This document shows, in pieces, positions 4,817-63,918 of a stretch of DNA of 64,000 bases (positions within the stretch are counted from its first letter, which is position 1; each line of letters begins with the position of its first letter). A program made the position numbers and the translations under genes. The DNA is from Mobula hypostoma (lineage: Eukaryota). The notes below the pieces were generated by a model that saw only the letters and a list, made by a program, of their open reading frames with translations, searched no databases and was not told the origin of the DNA. The stretch is from positions 22,072,001 through 22,136,000 of the forward strand of contig NC_086108.1 in the NCBI RefSeq assembly GCF_963921235.1, in the 5' to 3' direction.

Positions 4817-4891
4817 TATATGTGTGTATATGTGTATATAGTGCCTATAAAAAGTATTTCCCCCTTGCAAATTTTCGTATTTTATTGTTTA

Positions 4892-6489
4892 CAGGTTTCC
4901 CCCACCATCCGAAGGTAGAGCGTTCCTATGAAACGGTTTGTAAGCCGAAATGTCGTAAAGCGAAGAAGCAATTATCATTTATTTATATGGGAAAATTTTG
5001 TTAGCGTTCGCAGACCCAAAAATAACCTACCAAATCATGCCAAGTAACACAAAAAACCTAAAATAACAGTAACATATAGTGAAAGCAGGAATGATAAGAT
5101 AAGTACACAGCCAATATAAAGCAGAAGTACTTCTCTACACCGACTGCCTGCACAGATCTCCGTAGCGAAAATCTCATGCAAGCGCTCTCGGCAGAAAATC
5201 TCACACAAGCGTTGTTGGCATAAACGCGCTCTCCAGTAACCTTTAAACTATGAAGCTGCCAAATCTACCAAATAACACGTAAAAACGCACAGCCTATATA
5301 AAGTAGAAATAATGTATGTACAGTATAGTATCACTTACCGGAATTGGGAAAACAGCGCCGAGCACACTGATGATGGTGTGTTAGACTGAGTCATCGCAGG
5401 CTGGGTGGTGCAGTGGCCCCCAACCTCCGGGCTGCTGACTGGGTACATTGCCGCGAAGAATGCAGCGGTAGCCGGGAGGCACACAGCACATCTTTAAGAT
5501 AAAAGCCGAAATAAACATGCTAATTAATTAGGTGCTGCCCGGCACGTAAATGTCGGCGCAGATCAGAGGCGATTACTGATTGCATCGCTTCTGATCTGGG
5601 CTGACAATTACGTGCTAGGCGGCACCTAATTAATTAGCATGTTTATTTCGGCTTTTATCTTAAAGATGTGCTGTGTGCCTCCCGGCTACCGCTGCGTTCT
5701 TCGCGAATTGGTACAGTATCTGTCCTGGGCCAGGGTGTTGGGACACGGGGGTGTCATCTCATCGTTGATCAGGGCAGGCAGCTCATCTTCTCCAATACTG
5801 CCCGCCTCGATGTCGAAGGTCAAGGTTCATCGTCTGCTGTGGCTGATGTGGAAGGCTTGCATGACTGCTGAGCCTCGTGCATTTTTCTATCATACAGTCG
5901 TTTGTAAGCACTCAAACCATCCTGCAAATATCCCCTAAACCTACGTACCCTTTCAAAATTAAAGTTGTACTTTATCATTGCAGCGAAAATCTCACGCAGT
6001 TGCTTCACTTTCTGCATTCAGTTGCATTTGGTTTCGATTATTATCCTTTCCTCTTCCAATTGCATCAGCTCTTCGTCTATCACTTCTTGGTCATGGGATG
6101 CCAAAACCTCTTCAACATCATCTTCGTCAACTTCCACAAGCCAAACTCACTTTGTCCTTGCTTTGTTCACCACGATCAAAATGCTTAATTATGTCTAGTT
6201 TTACGCTAAGTGTAACACCCTTACTCTTTCAGGCTTTTCCGACACCTTAGAACTCATCTTGCTAACGGCTGCTCAATGCAACGTTTTTAAGCAATGCCGT
6301 TCCAAATCCAGGGCAGAGCGGCTGCTCGGGGCGCATGCTGCCTTTTATCGCGCACTGATTTTTTATCGTGTGCTGCCTTTCTTCGTAACAGTGAAAACAC
6401 CTTCTGAAAGTGAAAACAGGGTACTAATGTAGGTCTTCCGTAACAGTGAGGTTTCGTAAAGCGAATGTTCGAAAAGCGGGGGACACCTG
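4892..6489 (-). mobile_element. Tigger/pogo-like DNA transposon (copy 2), inserted in the left TIR of a Tc1 element
   Basis: TA|caggtttcccccacc ... cgggggacacctg|TA. Reverse-complement homologue of 3215-4816; ORF 5820-6017 matches 3576-4070. Confidence 0.85.
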
Positions 6490-15730: not shown

Positions 15731-16062
15731 AAAAAGGGCCACGTTAAATGTTAATGTGGAAATACATTTCTGGCTATTTAAATTTAAATAGTCTTATGGG
15801 TTTCATATAAAACTCTTAACAATTTGAATGTAGGTTTTAAACAAAATATTCTTCTTGGCAGTGACACAAAAGTTCAATTTTTCCACCGTCTCTGCTAGGT
15901 TTGTAGATGAAATATGTGCTTTCTTTTGTTCTTTGAATATATTATGTGTCACCAATCTGAAAACAAAGGAGCTGCCACTTCATCAGATCTGTCTATTTGT
16001 ACAACACAGATAAAAGTTGCTGGTGAACACAGCTGGCCAGGCAGCACCTCTAGTAAGAGGTA

Positions 16063-16100
16063 CAGTCGACGTTTCGGGCCGAGACCCTTCGTCAGGACTA
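16063..16100 (-). ncRNA. Minimal type I hammerhead ribozyme motif in PLE 3' end
   Basis: Reverse complement: tagtc CTGACGA agggtctcggccc GAAAC GTC gactg. Stem I tagtc/gactg, stem II, catalytic core, GUC site. Confidence 0.8.
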
Positions 16101-17637
16101 ACTGAAAGAAGAGCTAGTAAGAGATTTGAAAGTGGGAGGGGGAGGGGGAGATCCGAAATGATAGGAGAAGACAGGAGAGGGAGGGATGGAGCCAAGAGCT
16201 GGACAGTTGATTGGCAAAAGGGATATGAGAGAATCATGGGACAGGAGGCCCAGGGAGAAAGAAAAGGGGGAGGGGGTGAAAAGTCCAGAAGATGGGCAAG
16301 GGGTATAGTGAGAAGGACAGAGGGAGAAAAAGGAGAGAGAAAAAGAATGTGCGTATATAAATAAATAAATAACGGATGGGGTACGAGGGGGTGGGTGGGG
16401 CATTAGCGGAAGTTTGAGAAGTCAGTGTTCATGCCATCAGGTTGGAGGCTACCCAGACGGAATATGTGTTGTTCTTCCAATCTGAGTGTGGCTTCATCTT
16501 TACAGTAGAGGAGGCCGTGGATAGACATATCAGAATGGGAATGGGACGTGGAATTAAAACGTGTGGCCACTGGGAGATCCTGCTTTCTCTGGCGGACAGA
16601 ACGTAGGTGTTCAGCGAAACAATCTCCCAGTCTGCGTTGGGTCTCGCCAGTATATAGAAGGCCGCATCGGGAACCGGATGCAATATATCACCCCAGCCCA
16701 CTCACAGGTGAAGTGTCACCTCACCTGGAAGGACTGTCTGGGGCCCTGAATGGTAGTGAGGGAGGAAGTGTAAGGGCATGTGTAGCACTTGTTCCGCTTC
16801 CAAGGATAAGTGCCAGGAGGGAGATAGGTGGGGAGGGATGGAGGGGACGAATGGACAAGGGAGTCGCGTAGGGAGCAATCCCTGTGGAAAGCAGAGAGGA
16901 GGGGAGGGAAAGATGTGCTTAGTGGTGGGATCCCTTTGGAGGTGGTGGAAGTTACAGAGAATTACATGTTGGACCTGGAGGCTGGTGGTGTGGTAGGTGA
17001 GCACCAGGGGAACCCTATTCCTAGTGGGGCGGCGGGAGGGTGGAGTGAGAGCAGATGTGCGTGAAATGGGGGAGATGCATTTGAGAGCAGAGTTGATGGT
17101 GGAGGAAGGGAAGCCCCTTTCTTTTTGCTTCGCTGAACACCTACGCTCTGTCCGCCAGAGAAAGCAGGATATCCCAGTAGCCACACATTTTAATTCCACG
17201 TCCCATTCCCATTCTGATATGTCTAGCCACGGCCTCCTCTACTGTAAAGATGAAGCTGCACTCAGGTTGGAGGAACAATACTTTATATTCCGTCTGGGTG
17301 GCCTTCAACCTGATGGCATGAACATTGACTTCTCAAACTTCCGCTAATGCCCCACCTCCCCCTCGTACCCTATCTGTTATTTATATACACACATTCTTTT
17401 TCTCTTTCTTCTTTTTCTCCCTCTGTCCCTCTCTCTATACCCCCTGCCCATCCTCTGGGCTTCCCCCCCTCCTTGTCTTTCTTCCTGGGCCTCCTGTCCC
17501 ATGATCCTCTCATATCCCTTTTGCCAATCAACTGTCCAGCTCTTGGCTCCATCCCTCCCCCTACTGTCTTCTCCTATCATTTTGGATCTCCCCCTCCCCC
17601 TCCCACTTTCAAATCTCTTACTAGCTCTTCCTTCAGT

Positions 17638-17675
17638 TAGTCCTGACGAAGGGTCTCGGCCCGAAACGTTGACTG
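17638..17675 (+). ncRNA. Minimal type I hammerhead ribozyme motif (GUU site)
   Basis: tagtc CTGACGA agggtctcggccc GAAAC GTT gactg. Confidence 0.75.
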
Positions 17676-18469
17676 TACCTCTTCCTAGAGATGCTGCCTG
17701 GCCTGCTGCGTTTACCAGCAACTTTTATGTTTGTTGCTTGAAATTCCAGCATCTGCAGATTTCCTGGTGTTTGCGTGTTTGTTTGTACAAGTTGTTTACG
17801 GTCTGACAGAGAATGCCTTAGCTTTCTAATGTCTGCAGAGTATTGCTCTCCCCTTGAGAAATGATGGAATTTCCGATGCAAGAGTACTTTGAATTTATGA
17901 TTAATTAGCATATGCTATATCTTCTTCTGGATCTCCCGGTTTCCATTGAGCTGGTCCTGCAATTTTCTGGAGGAGAAACAGAATTCCTTAACAGCTTATG
18001 GAAGAATTTCAGGGCAATCCAACTACAATGACATTTTTCATCTTCTGTTGTTTAGGAGTCATCAGATGGGTTGTGAGCAATGTACTAGAAACACTTTCTT
18101 TGTGGGAACCTTGAAACCTAAAACATTAATTTTCTGGAAGTATAGTTTCTGTTCCATCATTTTATTTCGGGCGAAGCTGATAGGGATATAGTGCATGAAG
18201 AATGGTTAGTCCAGTAATTAATGATAATTGTCATGATATGGCTATCACCTTCTTCACTGCTGTTTTAGTAGAGTGCCAAGATCGAGGACTTATCACAGAT
18301 AGTGACACAGTTAATGCCCACTTGAACAGCACTTTGAAGAACTTATTGTCCAAGAGTCTATCTTGGTGCAAGTGCCCTTGACCCTTAATCACTGCACATT
18401 TTTCAACACAGTCTAGCTGCCATTCCAGTCAGGCAAGGGGCTGGAAGGTCCATATATCAACTGAGAAAA

Positions 18470-20689: not shown

Positions 20690-21965
20690 ATGAGGTTCTG
20701 CAAATGCTGGAAGTCCAAAGAAACACATAACTGAAGGCTGGAGGAACTTGGTAGGTCAGGTAGCAACCATGAAAGTGAATAAACAGTTGATGTTTTGGGC
20801 CGGGACCATTTTTCTGGGATGGAACGGAAGGGGGAGGATGACATAATAAAAAGGTTGGTGGGGGGAAGCAGGATTAGCTAGACTGTGATATGTGAAGTCA
20901 GATGGAGGTGGGAAAGGTAGAGGTTTGAGAGGAAGGAATCTGATAGGAGAGAAGAGTTGATCTATGGAAAAAGGGAAGGAGGAGGAGTACTGGGGGGAGG
21001 TGAGGAGAATAGGTAAGAGGCTAGAGTTGGAGGGGGGGGGGCAAAATTACCAGAAGGAGAAATCGATGTTTATGCCATCAGGTTTAAGGCTACCAAGGCA
21101 GAAAATGAGATATTACTCCTCCACCTGAGAGTGGCCTCATCATGGCAAAAGAAAAGGCCATGGACTGATATGTTGGAACAGGAATGGGGATAGTAGTTAA
21201 GATGGTTAGACATGGGGAAATTCTACTTTTTGTCAATTGCTGGGATATATGCCAGGAGGTACAAATGAACAAGGGAATCACAGAGGGTGCAATCTTTGTG
21301 GAAAGTGGAGGAGTTGGGGGGGCGGTTGTTAAAGAGGAGTTTTGTGATAGGATCCAGTTGAAGATGGTGGAAGCTGCAGAGAATGATGTGTTGGATGCAG
21401 AGGCTGATGGGGTGCTAGATGAGGACAAAAGGCAGTAGGAAGATGGGGTGAGCATGAATGTCCGAGAAATGGAGGAGATGCGGGTGAGGGCAACATCAAT
21501 GATCGAAGAAAGGGGTCTTTGAAGAAGGACAACATCTCTGATGTCTTTGAAAGGAAAGTCTTATCCTGGAAATAGATGTGGCAGAGGTAAAAGAACTGAG
21601 AAAAGGGAATAGCATTTTTACAGGAGACAGGGTGGGAAGAGGTATAATCAAGATAACTGTGGGAAACATTAGGTGTATAAAAGATGTCCAGAAATAGAGG
21701 CAGAGAGATCGAGAAAGGGGAAGAGAGATGTCAGAAATGGACCGAGTGAATTTAAGGGTAAGGTGAAAGTTGAAGGCAAAGTTGATGAAATTTTTGAATT
21801 TAGCATGGGTGCATGAAGCAGCACCAATACAGTAGTCAATATAGCACAGGAAGAGTTAGGTAGCATTACCAAGGAAGGCTTGGAACATGGACTTTTCTAT
21901 GTAGCCAATGAAAAGGCAGGCATAGCTGGGGTCCATTCAGGTGCCTATGGCTACCCCTTGAGTTC
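20690..21965 (-). mobile_element. Degenerate Penelope-like element (RT, endonuclease, 3' end)
   Basis: Collinear with 39100-40700 (atgccatcaggtt..aggctacc, ggcatagctggg...ggctaccc). Decayed hammerhead region ~20783-20820. Confidence 0.8.
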
Positions 21966-24344: not shown

Positions 24345-27300
24345 ATATCCTAACCTGGTTGGTCCTTCCAAAGTGCAACACCTCACACTTGTATGCATTG
24401 AATTCCATCTGCCAGTTTTCGGCTCATTTTTCCACCTGGTCCAGATATGCATAGTCTTTGACAGTGTTTTTCGCTGTCTACTACATCTCAGTCTTGGTGC
24501 CATCAGTAAATTTGCTGATCTAGTAAACCACATTATCATTCAGATTGTTGATGTAGACGACAAACAACAGAATCCACAATGATCCCTGCAGCACACCACT
24601 AGTCACAGGCCTCCAGTCAGAGAGACAACCATCTCCTACCACTCTCTAACTTTTCCAGTGAAGCCATTGTCTTATTCAGTTTACTCCATCATCTTTAATG
24701 CCAAACGACTGAACGTCCCATGTGAGGCCTTGTCAAAGGCTGTGCTAAAGACCATGTTAAGAAACATTCACTGCTTTTACCTTCATCCTTTCCTGGTAAC
24801 TTCCTCAAAAAACTCCATGAGGTTGGCTCAAAATGACCCACCATACAAAAGACCATGTTGACTATTGCTAATTAGTTGCTGTGTATCCAAATACTTACAG
24901 CGCGTAAATAAGAGAAAATCTGTAGATGCTGGAAATCCAAGCAATGCACACAAAATGCTGGAGGAACTCAGCAGGCCAGGCAGCATCTATGGAAAAGAGT
25001 ACAGTCGACATTTTGGGCTGAGACCTTTCAGTATATATCTTGTTCCTTAGAATGCCTATCAGTGACTTTCCCACTCCTGATGTCAGGCTCACCGGCCTAT
25101 AATTTCCTGGCTTATTCTTAAAGCCTTTCTTAAACAACAGAACAACATTAGCTGCCTGCCAATCTTCTGGCACCTCACATGTGGCTAAGGACATTTCAAA
25201 TATCTCTGCTGGGGCCCTTGCAGTTTCTGCACAAACCTCACACAGGGTCCAAAGGAACACCTTGTCAGGCCCTGGGGATTTATCCACCCTAGTTTTCCTC
25301 AAGACAGGAAAACACTTCCTCCTCTGTAATCTGTGCAGTCCATGACCTCACTGCTGTTTTGACTCACTTCTATAGACTGTGTCCATCTCCCAAGTAAATA
25401 CAGATGCAAAAAAAAATTCAATTTAAGATCTCCCCCAATTCTTTTTACTCCACTCTTGGTTATCCAGAGGACCAATTTTATCCCTTGCTATCCTTTTACT
25501 CTTAATATATCTCTAGAGCAACTTCATGCCTTTTTCCAGCTCTCCTGATTTACTGTTTAAGTTATCTTGCACTTATATTTCCTTAAATACCTCATTTGTT
25601 CCTTGCTGCCTATACCTGCTATTCACTTCCTCCTTCTTCTTAACCAGGGCCTCAATATCTCTCGAAAACCAAGGTTCCCTAAAAGTGTTATCCATGCCTT
25701 CGACAGGATCATACAAACAGTGTGCTCTCAAACTTTCACTTTTGAATACCTCCCAATTACCAAGCACACCTTTGCCAGAAAACAACTTATCCCAATCCAT
25801 ACTTGCCAGATACTATTGTCTGATACTATTAAAATTGGTCTTTCTGCAGTTCTCCAGAGGACCTGACCTATCTTTCTCCATAATTATCTTGAATTATCCT
25901 GTCTCATTCTCTAATCGGAGATTAGTATTTCACTCTCTCTTGTGGGAACCTCTACATACTGATAAGGAAACTTTCCTGAACACATTTGGTCTATCCCATC
26001 CAGCTGTTACACAGTATGGGAGTCCCAGTCAATAGGTGTAATGCTAAAATCACTTGCTATCACAACCTTGTTTCTTCTAAGCATCTGCAATCTCTCTACG
26101 AATTTGCTCCTCCAAATCCCTTGGACTGTTGTGGACTCTATAACATAATCCCATTAATATGGTCATCCCTTTCTTATTCCTCAATTCCACCCATATGGCC
26201 TCAGTTTACGAGCTTTCAGCCTGTCCCGTCTGAGCACTGCCATGACATTTTCCCTGACTAGTAATGCCACCTCTCCCTCTTTAATCCCTCCCACTTTACT
26301 GCATCTAATGTAATGAATCTCTGGAACCTTGAGCTGCAGTCCTGCCCCTCCTGCAACCAAGTGTCACTAATGGCTACAGTGTCATAATTCCACATGCTGA
26401 TCCATGGCCTAAGCTTATCCGCCTTTCCTACAATGCTTCTTGCATTGAAAGGGATGCAACTCAGAACATCGTTTACACCATGCTTAACCTTTTGATTCCT
26501 GTTTCTGTATGTGGGCTTAACAACATCTTTCTCCACAACAGCTACACTACTGCACTGGCTCACTGGCTCCCATCCCCTTGCAACTCTAGTTTAAACCGCC
26601 ATGCAGCACTAGCAAACCTTCCTGCAAGGATATTCTTCCCCCTCCAGTTCAGATGCAAACCATTCTGCCAGTACAGATCCCACCTATCCTGGAAGAGAGC
26701 CCAATGATCCAAAAATCTGAAGCCCTCTCTCTTCTGCATTATCTCCGTAACCACGTGTTAAACTGTATGATCTTCCTACCTCTGGCCTCACTAGCATGTG
26801 GCATGGTTAGCAATCTTGAGTCACAACCCTGGAGCTTCTGTCCTTTAACTTAGCACCTAAGTCCCTGAAATCACTTTGCAGGACCTTTTCGCCCTTCGTA
26901 CCCATGTCATTAGTCAACGTGTACCACAAACATTGCTGCTCACCCTGACATTAAGAATGCAGTGGGCGCCATCTGAGATGTCCGTGATGCTGACACCCGG
27001 GTGGCAACATATCATCCAGGAATTTCATTCTTGTCCGCAGAACCTCCTTTCTGTGCCCCTCACTTAAGGAATCCCATATCACCAGAGCTCACCTCTTCAA
27101 CCCCCTTCACTTCTGAGCCACAGATCTAGACTCAGTGCCTGAAATCCAACTGCTGTGACTTTACTCTGCTTGGTCATCCTCCCTAACTGTGGCAATCCTC
27201 CTGTTGATGAGGGGAACAGCCCTAGGGGTACTCTGCATTGGCTGTCTATCTCCTTACCCCTCTTGATGATCACCCAGTTACCAGGGTCCTGCACCTTGAG

Positions 27301-27799: not shown

Positions 27800-28690
27800 A
27801 GAGTAATTGGTTTATTATTGTCAGGTGTATCGTGATACTGTGAAAAGCTTTCATTTGCATGCCATTGAGACAGATCATTCCATACACATGTCAGGGTAAT
27901 ACGAAAAACTTTTAAAAATGCAAAATATGGTGCTATAGTTACAGAAAATATGCAGGGCAGGTAAACAAGTGCAAGGTCCATGACCAAATAGATTGACAGA
28001 TTAAGGCATTTATATTTAACATAGAAGAAGGCTGTTCAAAAATTTTATAAACAGCAGGATAGAAGCTGAGCAATACACACAAAATGCTGGAGGAACTCAG
28101 CAGGCCAGGCAGCATCTATGGAAGAAAGTACAGTCGGCATTTTGAGCTGAAACCCTTGGCAGCTCTCCCAAAGCAGTGGGAAATGTAGACAGAGTCAATG
28201 AAATTGCTGTTTTGCATGAAGGACCGGGCTTATGTTTACAACTCTCTGCAATTTCTTGTCTTGGGCAAAGTAGTTGCCAAATCAAGTTGAGATAGATCAA
28301 GATGGGTTGCTTTCTGTTGTACATCTGTAAGCATTGGTAAGAATCGTCGATACCATATCGAATTTCCTTAAGTCCATGACTGGCTCTTTTGTTTGACTGA
28401 CATGGGTAGAAAGTTTGTTCTTTTGACACCACATCAGCGGGCTCTCTACCTCCTATCTGTACTCCATCTTGTCGTTGTTTGAGATACAGCTTCCTACAGT
28501 GGTATCTGCAAGCATGTAGATGGAATTAGAGTTGTATTTGGCCACGCAGTTGTGAGTGCATAACAAGTAGAGTAGGGGGCAAAGAATGCTGTCTTGTGGG
28601 GCACTAGGTTGATCGTGTTAAAGTTGTGGTTGTCCGTCCTTACCAACTGTGGTCTATTGGTCAGGAAGTCAAGGATACGTTTGCAGAGGG
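27800..28690 (-). mobile_element. Degenerate Rex1/Babar-like LINE containing a short PLE end at ~28071-28162
   Basis: Similar to the other Rex-like fragments; PLE tail cacacacaaaatgctggaggaactcagc embedded. Confidence 0.55.
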
Positions 28691-28976: not shown

Positions 28977-29095
28977 GGATTTTTCAGTAAAAGATTAAAG
29001 GGGTCTATCAAACGAACCAAGAGCCAGCCAAAACTTGACCGCAACACCAGCTTCCGTCAGATACTACCATCACTGAGGAACTCTGATAGTGACCG
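28977..29095 (+). CDS. RASAL2: Internal coding exon of a SynGAP/DAB2IP/RASAL2-family Ras GTPase-activating protein (start of PH region), most like RASAL2
   Basis: Polypyrimidine tract and ttgcag acceptor end at 28976. Translates [39 protein letters not shown](R). Donor CG|gtaaa at 29096 (phase 2). [17 protein letters not shown] and LPSLR are recalled as RASAL2-like. Not present in the ORF track. Confidence 0.9.
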
Positions 29096-29277: not shown

Positions 29278-29369
29278 ACATGCTTTTAGGTGGAGTGGGA
29301 TTATGTAAAGTCTGGCCTTTCAGTTGAGCAGAAGTCAGAAGCACAGGATAAAAGGAATGGAGACTGTTA

Positions 29370-29892
29370 TGTCAATCCATGGCCTCCTCTACTGTCAAGA
29401 CGAAGCCACACTCAGGCTGGAGGAACAACACCTTATATTTTGTCTGGGTAGCCTCCAACCTGATTGCATGAACATTGATTTCTCTAACTTCCATTAATGC
29501 CCCACCTCCCCTTCTTACCCCATCCCTTATTTTTATTCCCCCCTTTTTTTCTTCTCTCTCTGTCCCTCTCACAATCACTCCTTGCCTGCTCTCCATCTTC
29601 CCCTGGGCTGCCCTCCCCCATTCTTTCTCCCTAGGCCTCCTGTCCCATGATCCTCCCCTTCTCCAATTCTGTATCCCTTTTGCCAATCAACTTTCCAGCT
29701 CTTGGCTCCATCCCTCCCCCTCCTGTCTTCTCCTATCATTTTGGATCTCCCCCTCCCCCTCCCACTTTCAAATCTCTTACTTTCTCTTCTTTTAAGTTTG
29801 TCCTAACAAAGGGTCTCGGCCTGAAACGTCGACTGTACTTCTTCCTGTAGATGCTGCCTGGCCTGCTGCGTTCCACCAGCATTTTGAGTGTG
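29370..29892 (+). mobile_element. PLE 3' fragment with mutated hammerhead core
   Basis: GIY-YIG tail (ctcaggctggaggaacaacacctt...). Hammerhead core reads CTAACAA instead of CTGACGA at ~29803. Confidence 0.85.
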
Positions 29893-31104
29893 AGGCTGTT
29901 GATGATTCTTTTATGTTTGATTTAATGATACATCCTGACATGCTCTCATCTGATCCATATACAAAATTTTGTAGGGAATTCTTAATTGCTGTGCATTTAA
30001 AAATACAATTCTCTTAAAATACACAACTTGATCTCATCAAATTTGAACAGATGTTAAGCCAACAACAAGAAACTTGGTGAAGAATTTGGAATTTTATTGG
30101 CGAATAATGGAATGCAGAATACCAGGGCTTTTTCACTATATTCCACAGAAAAGGCACAGCTTTTTTTTAAGATTTGAGGTGATAAAGCATCTGCTAATCA
30201 TGAAGCAGCAGAAAAAAATAATTGATGCGTTTAACCAAGATAGTCGCTGAGGAAAATCTAACATGCAGAACAGCAGTATCAGTACATACACGTGATGAGC
30301 AAGTGTTAAGACAAAGCCTGAAGTGAGTCAAAAATGATGGCGATCCCAAGCAACCTCATTATAGATTCCAAAATCCGAAAAAAAATCTGAATATCTTCCA
30401 GCCCCAACCATTTCGGATAAGGGGAATTCAAACTGTACATGATGTGTTTTTATGTAATTGTGTCTGTGGATTATTTGAGGAACGGCAGTCATCTGTATTA
30501 CATTATTGTCTTGAATTATGTAAAAGCAGAAATATAATGGCTGTTAATGTGTATCTGTCTTCCCCTTTATCCTCTTATAGTTTATTGCTTCTTGTCTAAG
30601 TGCCTCCCTGTCTCTGAGAATGTTAATTAGTTCTTCAAATCATTAGCATGCCAAAGAATTAAGTGGAATTCAGGTGGAGGAGTACAGCATTTTCTGCAGT
30701 GTTTTTTTGAGAAAAAGAAATTGTGAAATTTCATTTCTTTATCACAACTTAGGAGCAAATTTCTAGAAGCACTAATAAAAATTTAGGTTTTGGGCTGTTC
30801 CCAGATTTCAACATTCAAACCATATTTGTTATCAAAATATGGTATATTAACATGTCCATCTTGAGATTAATTTTTTTGCAGGCATTTATAGGAAAAGTAA
30901 AGAAATACAATAGAATATTTGACAAGCCATACATAAACAACCAAGGTGCAAAAGAAGGCAAACAGCAACTTAAAAAAGTACTAAAACCTTAAGTTGTAAG
31001 AGTCCTTGAAAGTGAGTCTGTAAGTCACAGAATCAGTTCAGAGTTTTAGTGATTGCAGTTATCCACGCTGGTTCAGGAGCTTGATGGTTGTAGGGTAATA
31101 ACTA

Positions 31105-31400
31105 TGGTAGTGTGGTAGTGCGCAGCTACAGCAACACTATTACAGCTTGGAGAGTTCCAGAGTTTGGAATTCAATTCGGCACCGTCTGTAAGGAGTTTGT
31201 ATATTCTCCTCATGACCATGTGGTTTTCCTCCGTGCGCTCCAATTCCCTCCCACAGCCTGAAGAAGTACTGTTTAGAAGATCATTGTAAAATGTCCAGTG
31301 ATTATGCTACTGTTAAATTGGTGGGTTGCTGAGCTGTGCAGCTTGTTGGACTGGAAGGGCCTGTTCCATGCTGCATCTCTAAATAAAACAAAATAAAAAC
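31105..31400 (+). mobile_element. tRNA-derived SINE
   Basis: Homologous to 15470-15730 (ctgtaaggagtttgta, gaagggcctgttccatgctg, A-rich tail). Confidence 0.65.
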
Positions 31401-31475
31401 CTATTGGTGTAGAACCTAAGGTTTTTGTACCTCCTACCCAATGGAGTAGCAAGAAGAGAGCATGGCCTATTTGAT

Positions 31476-31701
31476 CAACATACATCAAAGTTGCTGGTGA
31501 ACGCAGCAGGCCAGGCAGCATCTATAGGAAGAAGCGCAGTCGACGTTTCAGGCCGAGACCCTTCATCAGGACTGACGAAGGGTCTCGGCCTGAAACGTCG
31601 ACTGCGCTTCTTCCTATAGATGCTGCCTGGCCTGCTGCGTTCACCAGCAACTTTGATGTATGTTGCTTGAATTTCCAGCATCTGCAGAATTCCTGTTGTT
31701 T
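31476..31701. mobile_element. 226-bp fold-back PLE made only of two inverted hammerhead-bearing ends
   Basis: 94-bp arms at 31476-31569 and 31572-31665 with one visible mismatch and a 2-nt loop. Exact 14-bp TSD ATGGCCTATTTGAT at 31462-31475 and 31702-31715. Confidence 0.92.
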
Positions 31702-33469
31702 ATGGCCTATTTGATGATGGATTCTTTTCTCTTGTGTCAGTGCTCATTATAAATGTACTTAGAGTGTTGCCTATGACACACTGGGCTCTCTCTGCCACTT
31801 TCTGTGGCCTTTTCTTTTCCTGAACATTGGTGTTTCCATACCAGGCCATGATGCAGCCAGTTAGGGTACTCTCCATGGTGCATCTATGGAAGTTTGTCAA
31901 AGTTTGTGGTGACATGGTGAAGCAACACAAACTTCTAAGAAAGCAGACGTGCTGTGATGATATTTATGTGCTGGTCTCAAGACAGATCCTCTGATATGTT
32001 ATTGGCAAGGAATTTAAAGCTACTGGCCCTCTCCACCTCTGATCCCCTAGTGGGTACTCACTCTCTCATGGACCTCCAGTTTCTTTCTCCTATAGTCAAT
32101 AATCAGCTCTTTGGTTTTGCTGTTATTGAGTGAGAGGTTGTTGTGGTACCACTCGATCAGATTTTCAAATTTCTTTGTTGATTTGCCACCACCTATGATT
32201 CAGCCAAAAACAGTGGTTCATCAGCAAATTTAAATGCGGCATTGGAGCTGTATTTAGTCGCACAATCATAGGCATGGTGAAAAAATAAGCTCACAGTCTT
32301 GTGGTGCACTTGGTTTGATGGTGATTGTGGAGCAGATGTTGCCAATCTGTACCAACAGGGTCTGCCAGTGGGGCAATCAGGGATCCAAGTGCACAGGTAG
32401 GAACCAAAGCCCAGGTCTTGGAGCTTAATGATGATTTTGAAGGGAATGATAGTGTTGAATGCTGAGTTGCAGTCATCCTGATATATGCATCTTCATTGTC
32501 TAGATGTTCCAGAGCTGAGTGAACAGCGAATGGAATGGCATTTGCTGTTGACCTGTTATGATGGGAAGCAAATTGGAATGAACCCAGTTCGCTCCTCCAG
32601 CAGGAGTTGATATGCTTCATGACCAACCTCTTGAAGCACGTCATCACTGTGGATGCAAGTGCTACTGGATGATAGTCAATGAGGCAGGTTACCACTTTCT
32701 TCTTGGGCAATGATTGAAGCCTGCTTGAAGCAGATGGGTACCTCAGACTGTTGAAGCAAGAGGTTGAAGATGTCTGTAAAAATACTCCAGCTGGTTGATT
32801 AGCACAGGAAAGCCAGATGCTTTCCATGGATTCAATCTCCTGAAGAATGTTCTCATGCCAGCCTCAGAGACTGAACTCACAAGATGGTCAGGAGCTATGG
32901 GGATTCTTAAGAATGCCTCCATGCTCTCTCAGTCAAGTGAGCATAAAAGGTGTTGAGCTCATTTGGGAATGAAACCTTGTTGTCATTTACATATGTTGCT
33001 TGGTTTTGCTTGTAGGAGGTGATGGGTTTCAAACTCTGACACAGTTGTTGGGTTGTTATTCAGTGACAAAAGAGTAGTTGAGAGAAAGGCTTTCCTTCAA
33101 AGTTATGTCAAAATTTGGATGACTGCAATTCACCGACACTGATGGAATTGAACTTTTTTATATTCTTTAAGGAATTAAAGCAGAGTTTTCATTGAAGAGA
33201 AAAACACAGTGATAGTGAGTAAATCTGAGTGAAGCTGATGACAATTCTATAAACCCTTTACAGTTTTCCAATTCTTGAAGTTCAAGCTTTCTGATATCAT
33301 GATTCACCAAAAATTTACATGTTATAAAAAAAACTACTATCAACAATTACATCTTATAAAATAACAGTTGAGAAATATGCAAGTGCACCTTTGATTTCTC
33401 CAGATTGTAGTACAAGATACAGAATTTGATGGAGTTTAGATGAAGTTATCAATAGGCTTCCACAGCAGA

Positions 33470-33970: not shown

Positions 33971-34279
33971 CGACTCCCATTATGCTCTACTTGAGATTTT
34001 ATGCAACTTTATAATAGCATGTCTAACGCTTTAACCTCGAGAACTTTATTTTTACAGTTCACTACTGTCATTTTAATTACGAGATGGTGAGGAGGCCTCT
34101 TCTCTGAGGCACCAACTGTTATTTGCAGTTTGTGCAGCTTCAACCAAAATAATAAAGAATCCAACGATCTTGACTTTTTTTCACTTTGATTTGTAACCAA
34201 TACAATAAACAAGCTGTCTGTTGCTAGGCACTACTCATTATTTCCTCCAGTATTTGCTAAGTCAACATGGCAAATTATA

Positions 34280-35490
34280 GCAACACACACAAAATGCTGG
34301 AGAAACTCAGCAGGCCAGGCAGCATTAGGAAAAGAGTAAACAGTTGATGTTTTGGGCTGAAACCCTTAATCAGGACTAGAGAAAAAAGAATGAGGTCAGA
34401 GTAAGAAGGTGAGGGAGAGGGGAGGGAGAAACACAAGGTGATAGGTGAAACTAGGAGAGGAGTGACGTGAAGAGCAGGAAGTTGATTGGTGAAAGAGATA
34501 AAGGGCTGGAGAAGGGGGAAATCTGATAGAAGAGGACAGAAGGCCATGGAAGAAAGGGGGAGGAGCACTAGAAGGAGGTGATAAGCAGGTAAGGGGATAA
34601 GATGAGAGGGAGGAATGGGGAATGGTGACAGTTACCAAAAGTTCGTGAAATTGCTGTTTATGCCATGAGGTTGGAGGCAACCCAGACGGAATATAAGCTG
34701 TTGCTCCAACAACCTGACTGTGGCCTCATCGCGGCAGTAGAGGAGGCCATGGACTGGCATATAGGAAAGGGAATGGGAAATAAAATTAAAGTGGGTGGCC
34801 ACCGGGAGATCCCTCTTTTTCTGGCGGACAGGGTGGTGGTCTTCCAATCTATGTCGGAGGCCACACTGGGAGCACTGGATATAGTAGATGACTTCAACAG
34901 ACTCACAGGTGAAGTGTCAGCTCACCTGGAAGGACTGTTTGGAGCCCTGAATGGTAGTGAGAGAGGAGGTGTAGGGGCAGGTGTGGCACTTGTTCCATTT
35001 GCAAGGATAAGTGCCATGAGGGAGATCAGTGGGGAGGAATGAATGGACAAGGGAGTTGTGTAGGGAGCGATCCTTGCGGTAAGTGAGGGAGGGGAGGGAA
35101 AGATGTGCTTGGAGATGGCAGATGCTTGGTGGTGGAATCCCGTTTGAGGTAGCGGAAGTGACGGAGAATTATGTGCTGGACATAGAGGCTGGTGGAGTAG
35201 TAGGTGAGGAGGAGAAAAGGAACCCTATCCCTGATGGGGTGACAGATGGATGGGGTGAGGCAGACATGCGCAAAATGGAAAAATGTGGGTGAGGGCAGCG
35301 CTGATGTTAGAGGGAAGGAAGCCCCTTTCTTTGAAAAAAGAGGGCATCTCCTTAATTCTGGAATAAAAGGCCTTATCATGAGAGCAGATGCAGTGGAGGA
35401 GAAGGAATTGAGTGAAGGGGTGGCATTTTTACAAGTAACAGGGTGGAGAGAGGTGTAGTCCAAGTAGTTGAAGAGTCGGTGGGTTGTAGC
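34280..35490 (-). mobile_element. Penelope-like element, 5'-truncated single arm
   Basis: ORFs 34632-34847 (PVATHFN...LEQQLIFRLGCLQPHGIN) and 35026-35547 (YLDYTSLHP). Decayed hammerhead at 34341-34378. Confidence 0.85.
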
Positions 35491-38740: not shown

Positions 38741-39159
38741 AATATGTTATAATATATTGCAGTTGATATTATAAAGAAAGTTTGTGATGGCTGTTATTGC
38801 TCCAGTTAGGATTTCACAACAGGAAGTTTTGCAATGGTATAGCAGTACTGATCAGATATTTTGATATATATCAGTAGGCATTATGAATGGAAAGCAATTC
38901 TTTCATTGGTAATCAGAGAACGCAATCAGCATACAGTTAAATGTTTTGTTTAAAGGGGGTAAATTGAAGATAATGCAGTAGATAAGGTATAAACTATGTC
39001 ATTTCAAAGAGCACTTATGATAGGAAATACTTCTATGTGGAAAATAGCTAAAGGGAGTTTCTGCAAGTCATACTTCACTAAAACTATACCAAATAAAGGA
39101 ACACACATCAAAGTTGCTGGTGAGCGCAGCAGGCCAGGCAGCATCTCTAGGAAGAGGTA

Positions 39160-39197
39160 CAGTCGATGTTTCAGGCCGAGACCCTTCGTCAGGACTA
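39160..39197 (-). ncRNA. Minimal hammerhead ribozyme motif (AUC site variant)
   Basis: Reverse complement: tagtc CTGACGA agggtctcggcct GAAAC ATC gactg. Confidence 0.7.
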
Positions 39198-42100
39198 ACT
39201 GAAGGAAGAGCTAGTAAGAGATTTGAAAGTGGGAGGGGGAGATCCAAAATGATAGGAGAAGACAGGAGGGGGAGGGATGGAGCCAAGAGCTGGACAGGTG
39301 ATAGGCAAAAGGGATATGAGAGGATCATGGGACAGGAGGCCCAGGGAGAAGGAAAAGGGGGAGGGGGGGATTAAACGCAGAGGATGGGCAAGGGGTATAG
39401 TCAGAGGGACAGAGGGAGAAAAAGGAGAGAGAGAGAGAAAGAATGTGTGTGTATAAATAAATAACGGATGGGGTACGAGGGGGAGGTGGGGCATTAGCGG
39501 AAGTTTGAGAAGTCAATGTTCATGCCATCAGGTTGGAGGCTACCCAGACGGAATATAAGGTGTTGCTCCTCCAACCTGAGTGTGGCTTCATCTTTACAGT
39601 AGAGGAGGCCGTGGATAGACATGTCAGAATGGGAATGGGATGTGGAATTATAATGTGAGGCCACTGGGAGATCCTGCTTTCTCTGGCGGACAGAGCATAG
39701 GTGTTCAGCAAAACGATCTCCAAGTCTGCGTCGGCTCTAGCCAATATATAGAAGGCCACATCAGGAGCACCGGACGCAGTATATCACCCCAGCTGACTCA
39801 CAGGTGAAGTGTCGCCTCACCTGGTAGGACTGTCTGGGGCCCTGAATGGTGATAAGGGAGGAAGTGTAAGGGCATGTGTAGCACATGTTCCGCTTACAAG
39901 GATAAGTGCCAGGAGGGAGATCAGTGGGGAGGGATGGGGGGTGGAATGAATGGACAAGGGAGTCACGTAAGGAGCAATCCCTGTGGAAAGCAGAGAGAGA
40001 GGGGAGAGGGAAAGATGTGCTTAGTGGTGGGATCCCGTTGGAGGTGGCGGAAGTTACGGAGAATAATATGTTGGACCCGGAGGCTGGTGGGGTGGTAGGT
40101 GAGGACCAGGGGAACCCTATACCTAGTGGGGTGGCGGGAGGATGGAGTGAGAGCAGATGTGCGTGAAATGGGGGAGATGTGTTTGAGAACAGAGTTGATG
40201 GTGGAGGAAGGGAAGCCCGTTTCTTTAAGAAAGGAGGACATCTCCCTCGTCCTGGAATGAAAAGCCTCATCCTGAGAGCAGATGCGGCGGAGACGGAGGA
40301 ATTGCGAGAAGAGGATGGCATTTTTGCAAGAGACAAGGTGCGAAGAGGAATAGTCAGATAGCTGTGAGAGTCAGTAGGCTTATAGTAGACATCAGTGGAT
40401 AAGCTGTCTCCAGAGATAGAGACAGAAAGATCTAGAAAGGGGACAGAGGTGTCGGAAATGGACCAGATAAACTTGAGGGCAGGGTGAAAGTTGGAGGCAA
40501 AGTTAATGAAGTCAACGAGCTCAGCATGCGTGCAGGAAGCAGCGTCAATACAGTTGTCGATGTAGCGAAGGAAAAGTGGTGGACAGATACCAGAATAGGT
40601 TTGTAACATAGATTTTTCCACAAAGCCAACAAAAAGGCAGGCATAGCTAGGACCCATACGGGTGCCCATGGCTACACCTTTAGTTTGGAGGAAGTGGAAG
40701 GAGCCAAAGGAGAAATCATTAAGAGTAAGGACTAATTCCGCTAGACGGATCAGAGTGGTGGTAGAGGGGAACTGATTAGGTCTGGAATCCAAAAAGAAGC
40801 CGAGAGCTTTGAGACCTTCCTGATGGGGGATGGAAGTATATCGGGACTGAACATCCATGGTGAAAATAAAGCGGTGGGGGCCAGGGAACTTAAAATCATC
40901 GAAAAGTTTAAGAGCGTGAGAAGTGTCACGAACATAGGTAGGAAGGGATTGAACAAGGGGGGATAAAACCGTGTCGAGGTATGCAGAAACGAGTTCAGTG
41001 GGGACCTCCCTCCCTCCCCTTTCTAGATCTTTCTGTTTCTATCTCTGGAGGCAGCTTATCTACTGATGTCTACTATAAGCCTACTGACTCCCACAGCTAT
41101 CTGGACTATTCGCCTTCTCACCCTGTCTCTTCCAAAAATGCCATCCCCTTCTCACAATTCCTCCGTCTCTGCCGCATCTGCTCTCAGGATGAGGCTTTTC
41201 ATTCCAGGACGAGGGAGATGTCCTCCTTTTCTAAAGAAAGAGGCTTCCCTTCCTCCACCATCAACTCTGCTCTCAAACACATCCCCCCCATTTCACGCAC
41301 ATCTGCTCTCACTCCATCCTCCCGCCATCCCACTAGGAATAGGGTTCCCTTGGTCCTCACCTACCACCCCACCAGCCTCCGGATCCAACATATTATTCTC
41401 CGTAACTTCTGCCACCTCCAACGGGATCCCACCACTAAGCACATCTTTCCCTCCCCCCCCCCGCTTTCCGCAGGGATCGCTCCCTACGCGACTCCCTTGT
41501 CCATTCGTCCCCCCCATCCCTCCCCACTGATCTCCCTCCTGGCACTTATCCTTGTAAGCGGAACAAGTGCTACATATGCCCTTACACTTCCTCTCTTATC
41601 ACCATTCAGGGCCCCAGACAGTCCTTCCAGGTGAGGCGACACTTCACCTGTGAGTCAGCTGGGGTGATATACTGCGTCCGGTGCTCCTGATGTGGCCTTC
41701 TATATATTTGCTAGACCCGACGCAGACTGGGAGATCGTTTTGCTGAACACCTATGCTCTGTCCGCCAGAGAAAGCAGGATCTCCCAGTGGCCACATATTT
41801 TAATTCCACGTCCCATTCTGATATGTCTATCCACGGCCTCCTCTACTGTAAAGATGAAGCCACACTCAGGTTGGAGGAGCAACATCTTATATTCCGTCTG
41901 GGTAGCCTCCAAACTGATGGCATGAACATTGACTTCTCTAACTTCCGCTAATGCCCCACCTCCCCCTCGTACCCCATCCGTTATTTATTTATATACACAC
42001 ATTCTTTCTCTCTCTCTCTCCTTTTTCTCCCTCTGTCCCTCTGACTATACCCCTTGCCCATCCTCTGGGTTTAATCTCCCCTCCCCCTTTTCCTTCACCC

Positions 42101-42246
42101 TGGGCCTCCTGTCCCATGATCCTCTCATATCCCTTTTGCCAATCACCTGTCCAGCTCTTGGCTCCATCCCTCCCCCTCCTGTCTTCTCCTATCATTTTGG
42201 ATCTCCCCCTCCCACTTTCAAATCTCTTACTAGCTCTTCCTTCAGT

Positions 42247-42284
42247 TAGTCCTGACGAAGGGTCTCGGCCTGAAACGTCGACTG
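42247..42284 (+). ncRNA. Minimal type I hammerhead ribozyme motif, intact, sense to the host pre-mRNA
   Basis: tagtc CTGACGA agggtctcggcct GAAAC GTC gactg. Confidence 0.8.
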
Positions 42285-42448
42285 TACCTCTTCCTAAAGA
42301 TGCTGCCTGGCCTGCTGCATTCACCAGCTACTTTGATGTGTGTTGCTTGAATTTCCAGCATCTGCAGAATTCCTCGTGTTTGCCAAAATAACGGAACATT
42401 TGCTCTTGTATTATAAATCTGAAATGTGGTTAAAGCTATAGTATTGAC

Positions 42449-45412: not shown

Positions 45413-46251
45413 TGTGACAAGAATACACATAGATTAAGATGTAGCTGGCCTGGGCTGGCACCAGTGGAATCAGCAGTTGGTCTGCCACCTGTCTTCAGGA
45501 GAGAGAGAGAGATAAGGAAAACAATGGAGCAGCATTTGGAGATGTTAATGAAGGAAGGAGAGCTGTCAAGATCGGCTCCCCCTTTGAACCCTGAACTGTT
45601 TGAAGTGATGGACAGGCGATACCCCAGCAGGGGGATAAAAAGGGACAGGTTCGTTAAGGCAGGACACACACGACACCCGAGGTAACAAGACCCTGGAAGC
45701 GGTGCGTCTCTCACAAGTCAGTGGAAAGTACCGGGCCATAAACGCACAGGGTGGAAAGGTACGATCGGCGGGAACCTGGTGTGTGTCCACCCTTGCCTGG
45801 GTGCCGGGTTCACCGCAGGGAAACGATCGTATCTGGAAACGGAGGGGTCACGGTCGGTGACCTCAGATGACATCACAAAGGACTCGCCCGAAAGCTGACT
45901 GCGAAGGTCTGTGTGTGGAAGCCGTTTTGAATATTCATTCGTTTTGCTCTCTCTCTCTCCTCCCCCCCCCCCCCCCACTGTCCATCGATTACTGCGAACT
46001 GAACTGAACTTTGCGTCACTTTGAAACTGGTCATTTACCCCTAGACAACGATAGAGCTTGATTGATCCTGTTATCTGAATTCTATATACATGTATGTTTA
46101 TCATTGCTGAACTGTTGCATTCATTATCCTTTTGATTAGAGTACTGTGTTGCTTGTTTCTTTAATAAAACTTTCTTAGTTCTAGTAATCCAGACTCCAAC
46201 TGAGTGATCCATTTCTGCTGGTTTGGCAACCCAGTTATGGGGTACGTAACA
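45413..46251 (+). mobile_element. Solo LTR (Gypsy-like, 4-bp TSD)
   Basis: TGTGAC...GTAACA termini. CTTT duplicated at 45409-45412 and 46252-46255. TATA-like ggataaaa at ~45633 and AATAAA at ~46163. CpG-richer than the flanks. Confidence 0.8.
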
Positions 46252-50500: not shown

Positions 50501-53500
50501 GACAATAGACAATAGGTGCAGGAATAGGCCATTCGGCCCCTCGAGCCTGCACTGCCATTCACTGTGATCATGGCTGATCATCCACAATCAGTATCCAGAG
50601 TTCCTGCCTTATCCCCATAACCTTTGATTCTGCTATCTTTAAGAGCTCTGTCCATCTCTTTCTTGAAAGCATCCAGAGACTTGGCCTCCACAGCCTTCTG
50701 GGGTAGAGCATTTCATATATCCACCACTCTCTGGGTGAAAAAGTTTTTCCTCAACTCCGTTCTAAATGGCCTAGCCCTAATTCTTAAGCTGTGGCCTCTG
50801 GTTCTGGACTCACCCATCAGTGGGAACATTCCTGCCTCCAGCGTGTCCAATCCCATAATAATCTTATATGTTTCATTAAGATCCCTCTCAGCCTTCTAAA
50901 TTCCAGAGTATACAAGCCCAGTCGCTCCAACCTTTCAACATATGACAGTCCCGCCATCCTTGGGATCAACGTTGTGAACCTACGCTGCACTCCCTCAATA
51001 GCAAGAATGTCTTTCCTCAAATTTGGAGACCAAATCTGCACACAGTACTCCAGGTGTGGTCTCACCAGGGCCCTGTACAGCTGCAGAAGGACCTCTTTGC
51101 TCTTATACTCAATTCCCCTTGTTATGAAGGCCAGCATACCATTAGCTTTCTTCACTGCCTGCTGTACTTGCATGCTTGCTTTCAATGACTGATGTACAAG
51201 AACACCTAGATCTCATTGTACTTCCCCTTTTCCTAACTTGACTCCATTTAGCTAATAATCTGCCTTCCCGTTCTTACCACCAAAGTGGATAACCGCACAC
51301 TTATCCATATTTATCTGCATCTGCCATGGATCTGCCCACTCACCCAGCCTGTCCAAGTCACCCTGCATTCTCATAACATCCTCCTCACATTTCACACTGC
51401 CACCCAGCTTTGTGTCATTGGCAAATTTGCTAATGTTACTTTTAATTCCCTCATCTAAATCATTAATATATTTTGTAAACAGCTGCAGTCCCAGCACTGA
51501 ACCCTGCGGTACCCCACTGGTCACCACCTGCCATTCCGAAAGGGACCCGTTAATCGCTACTCTTTGTTTTCTGTCAGCCAGCCAATTTTCAATCCATGTC
51601 AGTACTCTGCCCCCAATACCATGTGCCCTAATTTTGCCCACTAATCTCCTCTGTGAGACTTTATCAAAGGCTTTCTGAAAGTCCAGGTACACTACATCCA
51701 CTGGCTCTCCCTTGTCCATTTTCATAGTTACATCCTCAAAAAATTCCAGAAGATTAGTCAAGCACGATTTCCGCTTCGTAAATCCATGCTGACTCAGACC
51801 GATCCTGTTACTGCTATCCAGATGTGTCGTAAGTTCATCTTTTATAATTGACTCCAGCATCTTTCCCACCACCGATGTCAGGCTAACCAGTCTATAGTTC
51901 CCTGTTTTCTCTCTTCCTCCCTTCTTGAAAAGAGGGACAATGTTAGCCACCCTCCAATCCACAGGAACTGATCCTGAATCTATAGAACATTGGAAAATGA
52001 TTACCAATGCACCTACGATTTCTAAAGCCACCTCCTTAAGTACCCCGGGATGCAGACCATCAGGTCCCGGGGACTTATCAGCCTTCAGACCCAAAAGCCT
52101 ATCCAACACCACTTCCTGCCTAATATAAATTTCCTTTGGTTCATCCATTGCCCTAGTTCCTTTGGCCACTATTATATCTGGGATATTGTTTGTGTCTTCC
52201 CTAGTGAAGACAGATCCAAAGTACCTTTTCAACTCGTCTGCCATTTCCTTGTTCCCCATAATAAATTCACCTGTTTCTGTCTTCAAGGACCCAATTTTGG
52301 TCTTAACTATTTTTTTTTCTTTTCACATATCTAAAGAAGCTTTTACTATCCTCCTTTATATTCTTAGCTAGTTTACCTTTGTACCTCATTTTTTCTCCAC
52401 ATATTGCCCTTTTAGTTACCTTCTGTTGCTCTTTAAAAATTTCCCAATCCTCTGGCTTCCTACTCGTCTTTGCTATGTTATACTTCTTCTCTTTTATTTT
52501 TATACTGTCCATTACTTCCCTTGTCAGCCACGGCCTCCCCTTACTCCCCTTAGGATCTTTCTTCCTCTTTGGAATGAACTGATCCTGCACCTTCCGCATT
52601 ATTCCCAGAAACACTTGCCATTGCTGTTCCGCTGTCATCCCTGCTAGGGTATTGTTCCATTGAACTTTGGCCAGCTCCTCCCTCATAGCACCATAGTTCC
52701 CTTTGTTTAACTGTAATACTGACACCTCCGAGTTTCCCTTCTCCCTCTCAAATTGTAGATTAAAACTTATCATATTATGGTCACTACCCCCTAATGGCTC
52801 CTTTACCTCGAGGTCCCTGATCAAATCCGGTTCATTGCACAACACTAAATCTAGAATTGCGTTCTCTCTGGTAAGCTCCAGCACAAGCTGTTCTAAGAAT
52901 CCATCTTGGAGGGACTCCACAAACTCCCTTTCTTGGGGTCCAGTACCAACCTGATTCCTCCAGTCTACCTGCATGTTGAAATCTCCCATAACAACTGTAG
53001 CATTACCTTTGCGACATGCCAATTTTAACTCTTGATTCAACTTACACCCTACATCCAGACTACTGTTTGGGGGCCTGTAGATAACTCCCATTAGGGTCTT
53101 TCTACCCTTAGAATTTCTCAGTTCTATCCATACTGACTCTACGTCTCCTGATTCTATGTCCCCCCTCGCAAGGGACTGAATATCATTCTTCGCCAACAGA
53201 GCTACCCCACCCCCTCTGCCCATCAGTCTGTCCTTTTGATAGGACGTATACCCTTGAATATTCATTTCCCAGGCCCTGTCCACTTGAAGCCATGTCTCTG
53301 TTATTCCCACAACATCATACTTACCAATTTCCAACTGTGCCTCAAGCTCATCCACTTTATTTCTTATACTCCGTGCATTCATATATAATACTTTTAATTC
53401 ATTACTCCCCTCCCCTCCCATATCAATTCCTATTTCACTTGGCCACACTGTACGATCCCCTCTTGAGCTTTCTGCTCTGCTGATTCTGCTGTCTTTCTTA

Positions 53501-53600
53501 ACTTTTCTTATTCTCACTTTTCCTTTATCTCCATCCTTATATTTCCAGTTCGTCCCCTCCCCCCACTACTTAGTCTAAACACACCCATGTTGCAGAGACT
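50501..53600 (-). mobile_element. CR1 LINE with near-complete but disabled ORF2 (APE endonuclease + RT)
   Basis: ORFs 52303-53517 (NARSIRNK, VGITETWL, VIYRPP, MGDFN, SDHN), 51252-52286 (RT; FADD mutated to FAND) and 50817-51185. Tail gacaatagacaatag. Same family as 8765-10392. Confidence 0.95.
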
Positions 53601-63764: not shown

Positions 63765-63918
63765 GTCTCGTGCTTTACCAAAATTGAAAGAATCTCATTC
63801 GCATGAATCCCTGCTGAGCCCTAGCAGTGCAATCGAGACATTGGAATTAAGCATGGAGCAGGATGTCTTTATTAAACCTTTGCACAGTAGTATCCTGGGG
63901 CAAGACTTCTGCTTTGAG
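63765..63918 (+). CDS. RASAL2: Next coding exon of the same RasGAP gene (PH domain)
   Basis: Acceptor ttctttgcag|G. Reads (R)[51 protein letters not shown]. Donor GAG|gtacag at 63919. Phase-compatible with the exon ending 29095 (CG+G = Arg). Confidence 0.92.

Follow-up and report, generated by a model that had tools for sequence, protein, structure and literature searches.

We begin by considering a 226-bp insert (31476-31701) that folds into a long hairpin, and the question that it raises is what kind of element leaves such a structure, and by which route. The initial annotation presented it as a MITE-looking unit of retro-derived origin. In our reading, which we consider very probable, the insert is a dead-on-arrival, extremely 5'-truncated copy of a very abundant endonuclease-positive Penelope/Poseidon-type retroelement, laid down in one event. 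Throughout, "the window" stands for the whole 64-kb stretch of DNA that was analysed, and the features discussed are collected in Table 1.

The 14-mer that makes up the TSD has two exact copies, one on each side of the insert, and none elsewhere within the 64-kb window; the rough chance expectation for such a 14-mer no more than 20 nt from both insert ends is about 3e-5. Between the two arms lies a spacer of 2 nt which, compared with the native sequence of the 39-kb copy described below, is itself native sequence and part of the inverted arm. The single mismatch between the arms (31565/31576) is a C>T change in a CpG and falls on position 7 of the ribozyme core, which is variable. The predicted RNA fold has an energy of -196.9 kcal/mol (z -27.5) with a loop of 4 nt, and 0 of 200 shuffles are equally stable. 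The insert is nevertheless asymmetric, since its 36-nt tail has no pairing partner: the outer end of the inverted arm is the family's inner end, 36 nt short of the end of the tail. This tail is absent from the initial annotation, which otherwise gave the anatomy correctly, including the size, the exact TSD, the near-perfect 94-bp arms with 2 nt between them, the lack of coding sequence and the description as a minimal form of the fold-back insertion.

Table 1. Positions in the window of the insert, its parts, the larger fold-backs of the same family and the neighbouring host exons
Feature	Positions	Strand	Description
Upstream host coding exon	28977-29095	+	PF25321 (PH_RASGAP) E 5e-16, profile positions 8-46; AG/GT boundaries
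Left TSD, 14 bp	31462-31475		Identical to 31702-31715; single copy in the empty sites of organisms B and C
Inverted (inner-start) arm, copied antisense from the element's 3' region	31476-31569	-	93/94 complementary to 31572-31665
Minimal type I hammerhead motif	31537-31574	-	5-bp stem I; cleavage predicted after 31542; helix III cannot fold; G10.1-U11.1
Second minimal core	31567-31604	+	CTGACGA at 31572; cleavage predicted after 31599; junction breaks the two stem-I pairs next to the core
Centre	31570-31574		Spacer 31570-31571 plus junction microhomology CT or CTG, 31572-31573/4
Sense arm, pLTR 3' region from hammerhead core to inner end	31572-31665	+	7-12/94 differences from the four arms of the 16-kb and 39-kb copies
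Unpaired 36-nt tail	31666-31701	+	Terminates at the family's outer end
Right TSD	31702-31715		Identical to 31462-31475; empty-site contigs
Next host coding exon	63765-63918	+	PF25321 E 5.5e-23, profile positions 49-98; AG/GT boundaries
Medium fold-back, same family (16-kb copy)	16002-17772	+	Inverted arm 16002-17124, sense part 17129-17772; 6-9-bp TSD candidate
Larger fold-back, same family (39-kb copy)	39096-42381	+	Inverted arm 39096-40449, sense part 40440-42381; broken RT, CCHH/GIY-YIG, pLTR

Parent family and neighbouring repeats

The insert is the 3' end of a Penelope/Poseidon-type retroelement, where the name Poseidon is placed by resemblance only. It agrees with the end of the 39-kb copy at 121 of 130 positions, and all sequence matches to it in the window belong to the RT/GIY-YIG family. 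With this parentage, and with a tail standing between the right arm and the TSD, the description as MITE-looking but retro-derived is well founded. The 39-kb copy contains, in this order, an RT, a Cys-rich stretch, a GIY-YIG-like domain and a repeat with the hammerhead motif. Its RT is broken (Pfam RVT_1 E 0.0056, below the cut-off; Atlas 0.97 to RVT_1/HTH_animal clusters) and the GIY-YIG-like domain, with E 0.025, is likewise below the curated Pfam cut-off; despite these sub-cut-off matches the order and the motifs, to judge from the sequence, are those of an endonuclease-positive Penelope-like element (PLE). An imperfect TSD-like repeat of about 15 bp accompanies this copy, and no exact TSD of at least 7 bp was found for it.

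All three fold-backs of the family in the window share a pattern of ends, with one arm ending at the equivalent of 31665-31668 and the other at that of 31701. The inverted arms of the 16-kb and 39-kb copies stop at the equivalents of 31665 and 31668, and these two copies and the 25-kb copy stop at the equivalent of 31701-31702. Lone copies terminate near the inner or the outer site as well; for four of them (25, 28, 29 and 34 kb) no TSD of at least 6 bp was found in the ranges tried. The arm lengths are about 98 and 130 nt in the insert, 1123 and 644 nt in the 16-kb copy, and 1354 and 1942 nt in the 39-kb copy, and the junctions differ. The two arms of the insert have variants in common that neither the 16-kb nor the 39-kb copy carries in its arms, which indicates that both arms come from one donor.

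The TSD candidates of the larger fold-backs (39080-39100 with 42382-42397, and 15996-16004 with 17782-17790) overlap the first bases of the inner arm by 3-4 nt, an overlap that the 226-bp insert does not have; in the larger copies it suggests microhomology at the inner priming site. Fragments that have diverged more, at least six in number, also belong to this Penelope family or to sister families (24906-25029, 28069-28157, 29364-29892, 34272-35470, 20696-21964 and 15-836), with two upstream types among them and decayed cores in several.

Two other groups of repeats in the window are also folded back. At 7921-10657 there is a CR1-like LINE fragment (RVT_1 E 9.5e-13) in which 7921-8747 is inverted relative to 9552-10378 (96%) and 9258-9528 relative to 10388-10657, so that inversion is not confined to the Penelope family; a longer related copy with an endonuclease frame lies at about 50600-53600. 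The second is a 2.8-kb element (3432-6276) with long inverted flanks, internal palindromes of about 250-280 bp (4016-4295 and 5452-5705, about 80% alike) and an acidic frame (3567-4070) that has no Pfam match and that we take to resemble the C-terminus of a pogo/Tigger transposase. This element is a better candidate than the insert for a true DNA-transposon fold-back or MITE, and a weak Rfam mir-2329 match arises from it.

Host intron and age of the insertion

The two exons on either side of the insert are in matching phase and encode consecutive parts of the Pfam PH_RASGAP domain, which places the insert about 2.4 kb into a 34.7-kb intron on the plus strand; the exon boundaries, the phase and the Pfam matches thus confirm that it sits in a host intron, as had been proposed. 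The host gene presumably resembles the SynGAP/DAB2IP/RASAL2 group. A PDB sequence search with the host exon gave one chance match only (E 0.86). On the host strand, neither AATAAA/ATTAAA nor GT(A/G)AG is present in the insert. Further along, an ATG-started plus-strand frame at 45524-45683 ends AG/GT in phase with the exon at 63765 and has no Pfam match; it is a candidate alternative first coding exon of the RasGAP gene.

The next question is when the insert arrived. Read contigs from four runs, with organisms A, B and C among their sources, were aligned to 30900-32300, and contigs were placed at 88% likeness, a level at which repeats may mislead. A contig of organism B covers 31360-31461 and continues directly with 31702-31838 (102 and 137 letters of flank), and one of organism C covers 31362-31461 and then 31702-31846 (100 and 145 letters). 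Both are empty sites with the 14-mer present once. An empty site with one TSD copy in two relatives points to a recent, lineage-specific insertion, and bears out the earlier remark that the insert looks young. Precise loss through the TSD is possible but less parsimonious, needing two losses, one in B and one in C. The unique flank pieces of organism B differ from the window at 8 of 561 letters (1.4%), and a single mismatch between the arms fits an insertion later than the split from B.

In organism A, whose run is possibly the window's own source, the unique flank contigs listed have 0 differences from the window. A contig across the left junction has 0 differences too, at a depth of 14.1 compared with 14-16 in the flanks; only 22 of its letters lie inside the insert, below the threshold of 31 letters, and no contig among those listed spans the entire insert. 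Beyond the TSD, the flanks at 31000-31460 and 31790-32300 are an old repeat (aligned depth up to 5e5 in some bins), so that the insertion is placed inside an older repeat-rich stretch.

Inside the insert the contigs describe the family. In run X1 the summed depth over the insert is 4.4-6.5 million, compared with 14-16 for single flank contigs; it shows a very large family and is not a copy number. A variant at 31606 makes up about 40% of the aligned depth in A, 9% in B and 3% in C, where these are again summed depths and not copy numbers, and this hints at a subfamily recently active in A. One presumed RNA run gave family-level contigs only, none of the listed pieces being tied to the locus.

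Thirteen of the 15 joints listed fall inside the insert, all of them at different junctions (1077 further joints lie beyond those listed), and among those listed 8 of the 13 insert joints have an overlap of 2-4 letters in at least one run; most of the joints listed carry the mark "between: not known". In each of the four runs, contigs depart from the reference as loose ends at 31573 and 31574; in three, such ends accumulate at 31701. The joints and loose ends at 31572-31574 are not counted as a hot spot, because the reference has no native sequence upstream of them and they are partly forced. Some joints recur, for example 31525-31616 (6, 3 and 2 contigs in three runs) and 31532-31621 (5 contigs). 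These two are apparently even smaller fold-backs of about 136-140 bp without the hammerhead cores; the joint at 31525-31616 is exactly symmetric about the centre, is listed for three organisms, and may be recurrent, ancestral or an assembly effect.

Proposed route of insertion, hammerhead motifs and competing explanations

Any account of the insert has to satisfy several features of its structure. The start of one arm coincides with the family's outer end, that of the other lies 36 nt further in, and the two join with an overlap of 2-3 nt. Alignment with the 39-kb copy shows native sequence in the inverted arm as far as 31573, and the sense arm already begins at 31572, so that they overlap by CT, or by CTG for a donor of the second upstream type found in the read contigs. 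Both arms overlap the same template region, each being antisense when read from its target strand. They extend 28-32 nt beyond the ribozyme cut site, so the template RNA was uncleaved.

Reading these features alongside the in vitro results on the anole protein (PMC11167929), we infer as most likely a route with two cDNAs. A GIY-YIG/RT protein would nick both target strands, 14 nt apart. The two 3'-OH ends would then prime reverse transcription on the uncleaved element RNA from two start sites 36 nt apart, the outer site serving one strand and the inner site the other. The cDNAs, about 130 and 98 nt long, would both stop where the hammerhead core begins on its 5' side. CT/AG would serve to join them: they might simply anneal, or the inner cDNA might first fold back on AG-GA-CT before it pairs with its partner. 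After fill-in, the palindrome, the one-sided tail and the TSD would remain, with the hammerhead motifs as passengers. Within the pre-mRNA of the host gene a 94-bp duplex is expected from the insert, presumably without any selected function.

Simpler routes were considered and set aside. A fold-back of the tail-primed cDNA alone would place the native GA spacer on the opposite strand, and a fold-back of the inner cDNA alone cannot supply the tail; since neither fits both the strand of the spacer and the tail, two primings are needed. Ribozyme cleavage as the cause of the turn was rejected as well, the turn lying 28-32 nt upstream of the cut site. What speaks against the two-cDNA route is that in the insert the ends of the two cDNAs are no more than about 4 nt apart, whereas in each of the larger copies the asymmetry is about 500 nt, and the near-symmetric centre needs a fold-back step, a hot spot or luck. 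PMC11167929 reports start sites that did not differ between the strands, which by itself gives no prediction of inner/outer pairs in three of three fold-backs. The joining of two cDNAs was not found spelled out in the accessible parts of the open-licence literature, where an absence is weak evidence. Provided that the TSD records the nicks, cutting took place at 5'-AT/G-3' on both strands (31462 and 31475/31716; n=1); the anole enzyme prefers ATT (PMC11167929).

The alternative that survives best, although we think it quite unlikely, is a self-propagating, non-autonomous palindromic unit (a "retro-MITE"), whose hairpin transcripts would be re-copied by the autonomous protein while the palindrome regenerates the centre. 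The unit does retain both family ends, and the other tiny junctions (31525-31616; 31532-31621) are seen in several contigs and runs, but recurrent junctions also originate independently at short inverted matches. The centre of the insert is found once in the window, the other fold-backs in the window and many joints in the read contigs have different junctions, and the template would be masked by a perfect 94-bp duplex. Moreover, the anole protein requires RNA to +172 of the ORF, past the +111-118 start site (PMC11167929, in the text available), which, carried across species, is probably sequence absent from solitary copies. The centre junction pattern has no match in metagenome contigs, where the family motif is absent too, so the blank is uninformative; scans of metagenome, viral and prokaryote collections for the family motif gave no exact match and are equally uninformative.

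Less probable still is a collapse after insertion, in which a longer fold-back would have lost its interior by cruciform- or hairpin-mediated deletion. Long inverted repeats are prone to deletion, and such an event would account for the near-symmetric centre; the 2-3-nt microhomology is also compatible with end-joining. However, deletion usually eliminates palindromes rather than tightening them, a young insert (1/94 mismatch; flanks 8/561 from organism B) leaves little time for it, and no intermediate allele is present among the contigs listed.

We turn our attention to the hammerhead motifs. The minus-strand motif reads CAGTC-CTGATGA...GAAAC-GTC-GACTG at 31574-31537 and had been called complete; the motif and a 5-bp stem I are indeed there, but helix III amounts only to the loopless palindrome ACGU. 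The four closest copies in the window have TAGTC in place of the CAGTC before this core, so the outer C of its "perfect" stem I was probably supplied by the junction. Of the stem I that the plus core was said to lack, the two core-proximal pairs are lost and the three outer pairs are kept. Minimal hammerheads (min-HHRs) have neither helix III nor loop 3, with a conserved G10.1-C11.1 (PMC4209133, available part). Both cores have CUGANGA, GAAA, UH and a palindromic 15.2-16.2 without loop 3, as min-HHRs do, but position 11.1 is U in both, which makes 10.1-11.1 a G-U and not the conserved G-C. Rfam hammerhead models gave no match at E up to 1.

The pair probabilities of stems I and II in the minus motif are 0.92-0.99 when it is folded alone and 0.000 in context, where forcing the hammerhead fold costs 59.5 kcal/mol. 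A chain stopped just after the core likewise gives 0.000, because the antisense arm is transcribed first in either direction. As the cores are on opposite strands, a single transcript never carries both, and there is no unsequestered same-strand pair that could form helix III as in an active (dimeric) hammerhead. Both ribozyme-like motifs are thus predicted to be locked up by the hairpin and inactive, and the label "double hammerhead" does not survive: these are minimal cores of the dimer type on opposite strands.

These results bear on the suggestion of a functional RNA element, namely an active (double) hammerhead or an miRNA/siRNA source acting on the host gene or the family, which we find hardly credible. 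In its favour, neither strand has lost a core nucleotide, stems I and II form when the minus motif is folded in isolation, and the insert is intronic with a 94-bp duplex that would match a huge family. But one RNA holds one core, and in the available part of PMC4209133 the min-HHR monomer shows no cleavage in vitro and a same-strand dimer low cleavage. In context the stems have no probability of pairing, the penalty and the G10.1-U11.1 pair count against activity, and the element is unconserved, being missing in two relatives. The miRNA-like hairpin of the initial annotation is not supported by Rfam, where the best match, to mir-3926, is one of shape only at 49 bits, below the cut-off of 82; cruciform or siRNA potential would plausibly be a side effect of the hairpin. 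Last, a class II MITE or an assembly or chimeric-read artefact has a negligible chance, although the insert is small with long inverted arms and a TSD and palindromes are a known artefact type: the inverted repeats are not flush with the TSD at both ends (a 36-nt tail separates one arm from a TSD that is 14 bp long), the matches in the window lead to no transposase-coding element but to one with RT and GIY-YIG, of which the insert is the 3' terminus, two relatives have empty sites that match the TSD exactly, and the left-junction contig has no differences at flank-like depth.

Meaning and comparison with known systems

On its own the insert matters little, being a young copy from an enormous family inside a long intron. 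It is a clean specimen, with an exact TSD, a documented empty site and arms from one donor, and it links the start sites seen in vitro (PMC11167929) with the inverted-plus-tail structure (PMC8557442), both as far as the available text of these papers goes. It also provides a clean presence/absence marker between related organisms, and a warning that such units are open to mis-annotation as MITEs or miRNA hairpins. A true amplifying palindrome would represent a retrotransposon route to MITE-like elements. We regard it as unlikely, but worth stating, that one of two bolder propositions holds: either (a) there is a self-regenerating "retro-MITE" subfamily with a fixed centre, or (b) stopping and joining occur preferentially at the 5' edge of the hammerhead core, combined with strict inner/outer pairing. 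Under (a), both orientations of the spacer are predicted among the daughters. Under (b), one dimeric protein would engage both start sites of a single uncleaved RNA, and the genome's many mini fold-backs would record, in a natural setting, how inverted repeats of PLEs arise.

In the open-licence literature, where an absence is again weak evidence, no paper was found on MITE-like Penelope hairpins in cartilaginous fishes, the group to which the source organism, judging by motif resemblance, probably belongs. For the formation of an inversion, the familiar case is L1 twin priming, in which both target strands prime cDNA on the RNA, the inversion is joined by microhomology and a TSD results; the two pieces there derive from neighbouring stretches with little overlap, and the site of the inner primer varies. 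In contrast, the arms of the insert copy the same stretch from two fixed sites, which yields a palindrome.

Metazoan non-LTR retrozymes are, like the insert, small, non-coding, hammerhead-bearing and of similar size, and they are suspected users of PLE machinery (PMC7229834, available part). They are head-to-tail tandems with canonical type I ribozymes on one strand and circular RNAs, whereas the insert has no such head-to-tail repeats: it is inverted, with minimal cores on opposite strands. With metazoan min-HHRs (PMC4209133, in the part available) the cores share the conserved core, an extra nucleotide between 9 and 10.1, a short helix I and the palindromic 15.2-16.2 without loop 3. The same text describes opposite-strand pairs of min-HHRs 100-700 bp apart in Schistosoma; unlike these, the cores of the insert abut, are buried in one duplex and have G10.1-U11.1.

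A closer likeness is found with the anole Poseidon (PAc) protein, which cleaves and extends both strands in vitro, with an RT that starts at two internal sites delimiting the tail and does not require ribozyme cleavage (PMC11167929, available part). Two tail-delimiting start sites, cutting and extension of both strands, an uncleaved RNA, an AT-rich target and ends about 90-120 nt downstream of hammerhead stem II are common to that system and the insert. The family and the host are different, and inverted products and cDNA joining are not described in the available part of that source.

The structural pattern itself is already in print, and the insert is a tidy but ordinary insertion of its kind. 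According to the text available of PMC8557442, an adjacent inverted, 5'-truncated copy and a one-sided tail of 30-40 bp are typical of endonuclease-positive PLEs, and their formation is called undefined there. The insert has each of these elements, namely the inverted 5'-truncated copy on the 5' side, strong 5' truncation, a 36-nt tail at one end, the pLTR hammerhead motif and a 3' end from a parent in which GIY-YIG comes after RT. It departs from the pattern only in scale, with parts of about 100-130 nt and no partial tandem, and because both parts are cut to this length the arms nearly meet and give the insert its MITE-like look.
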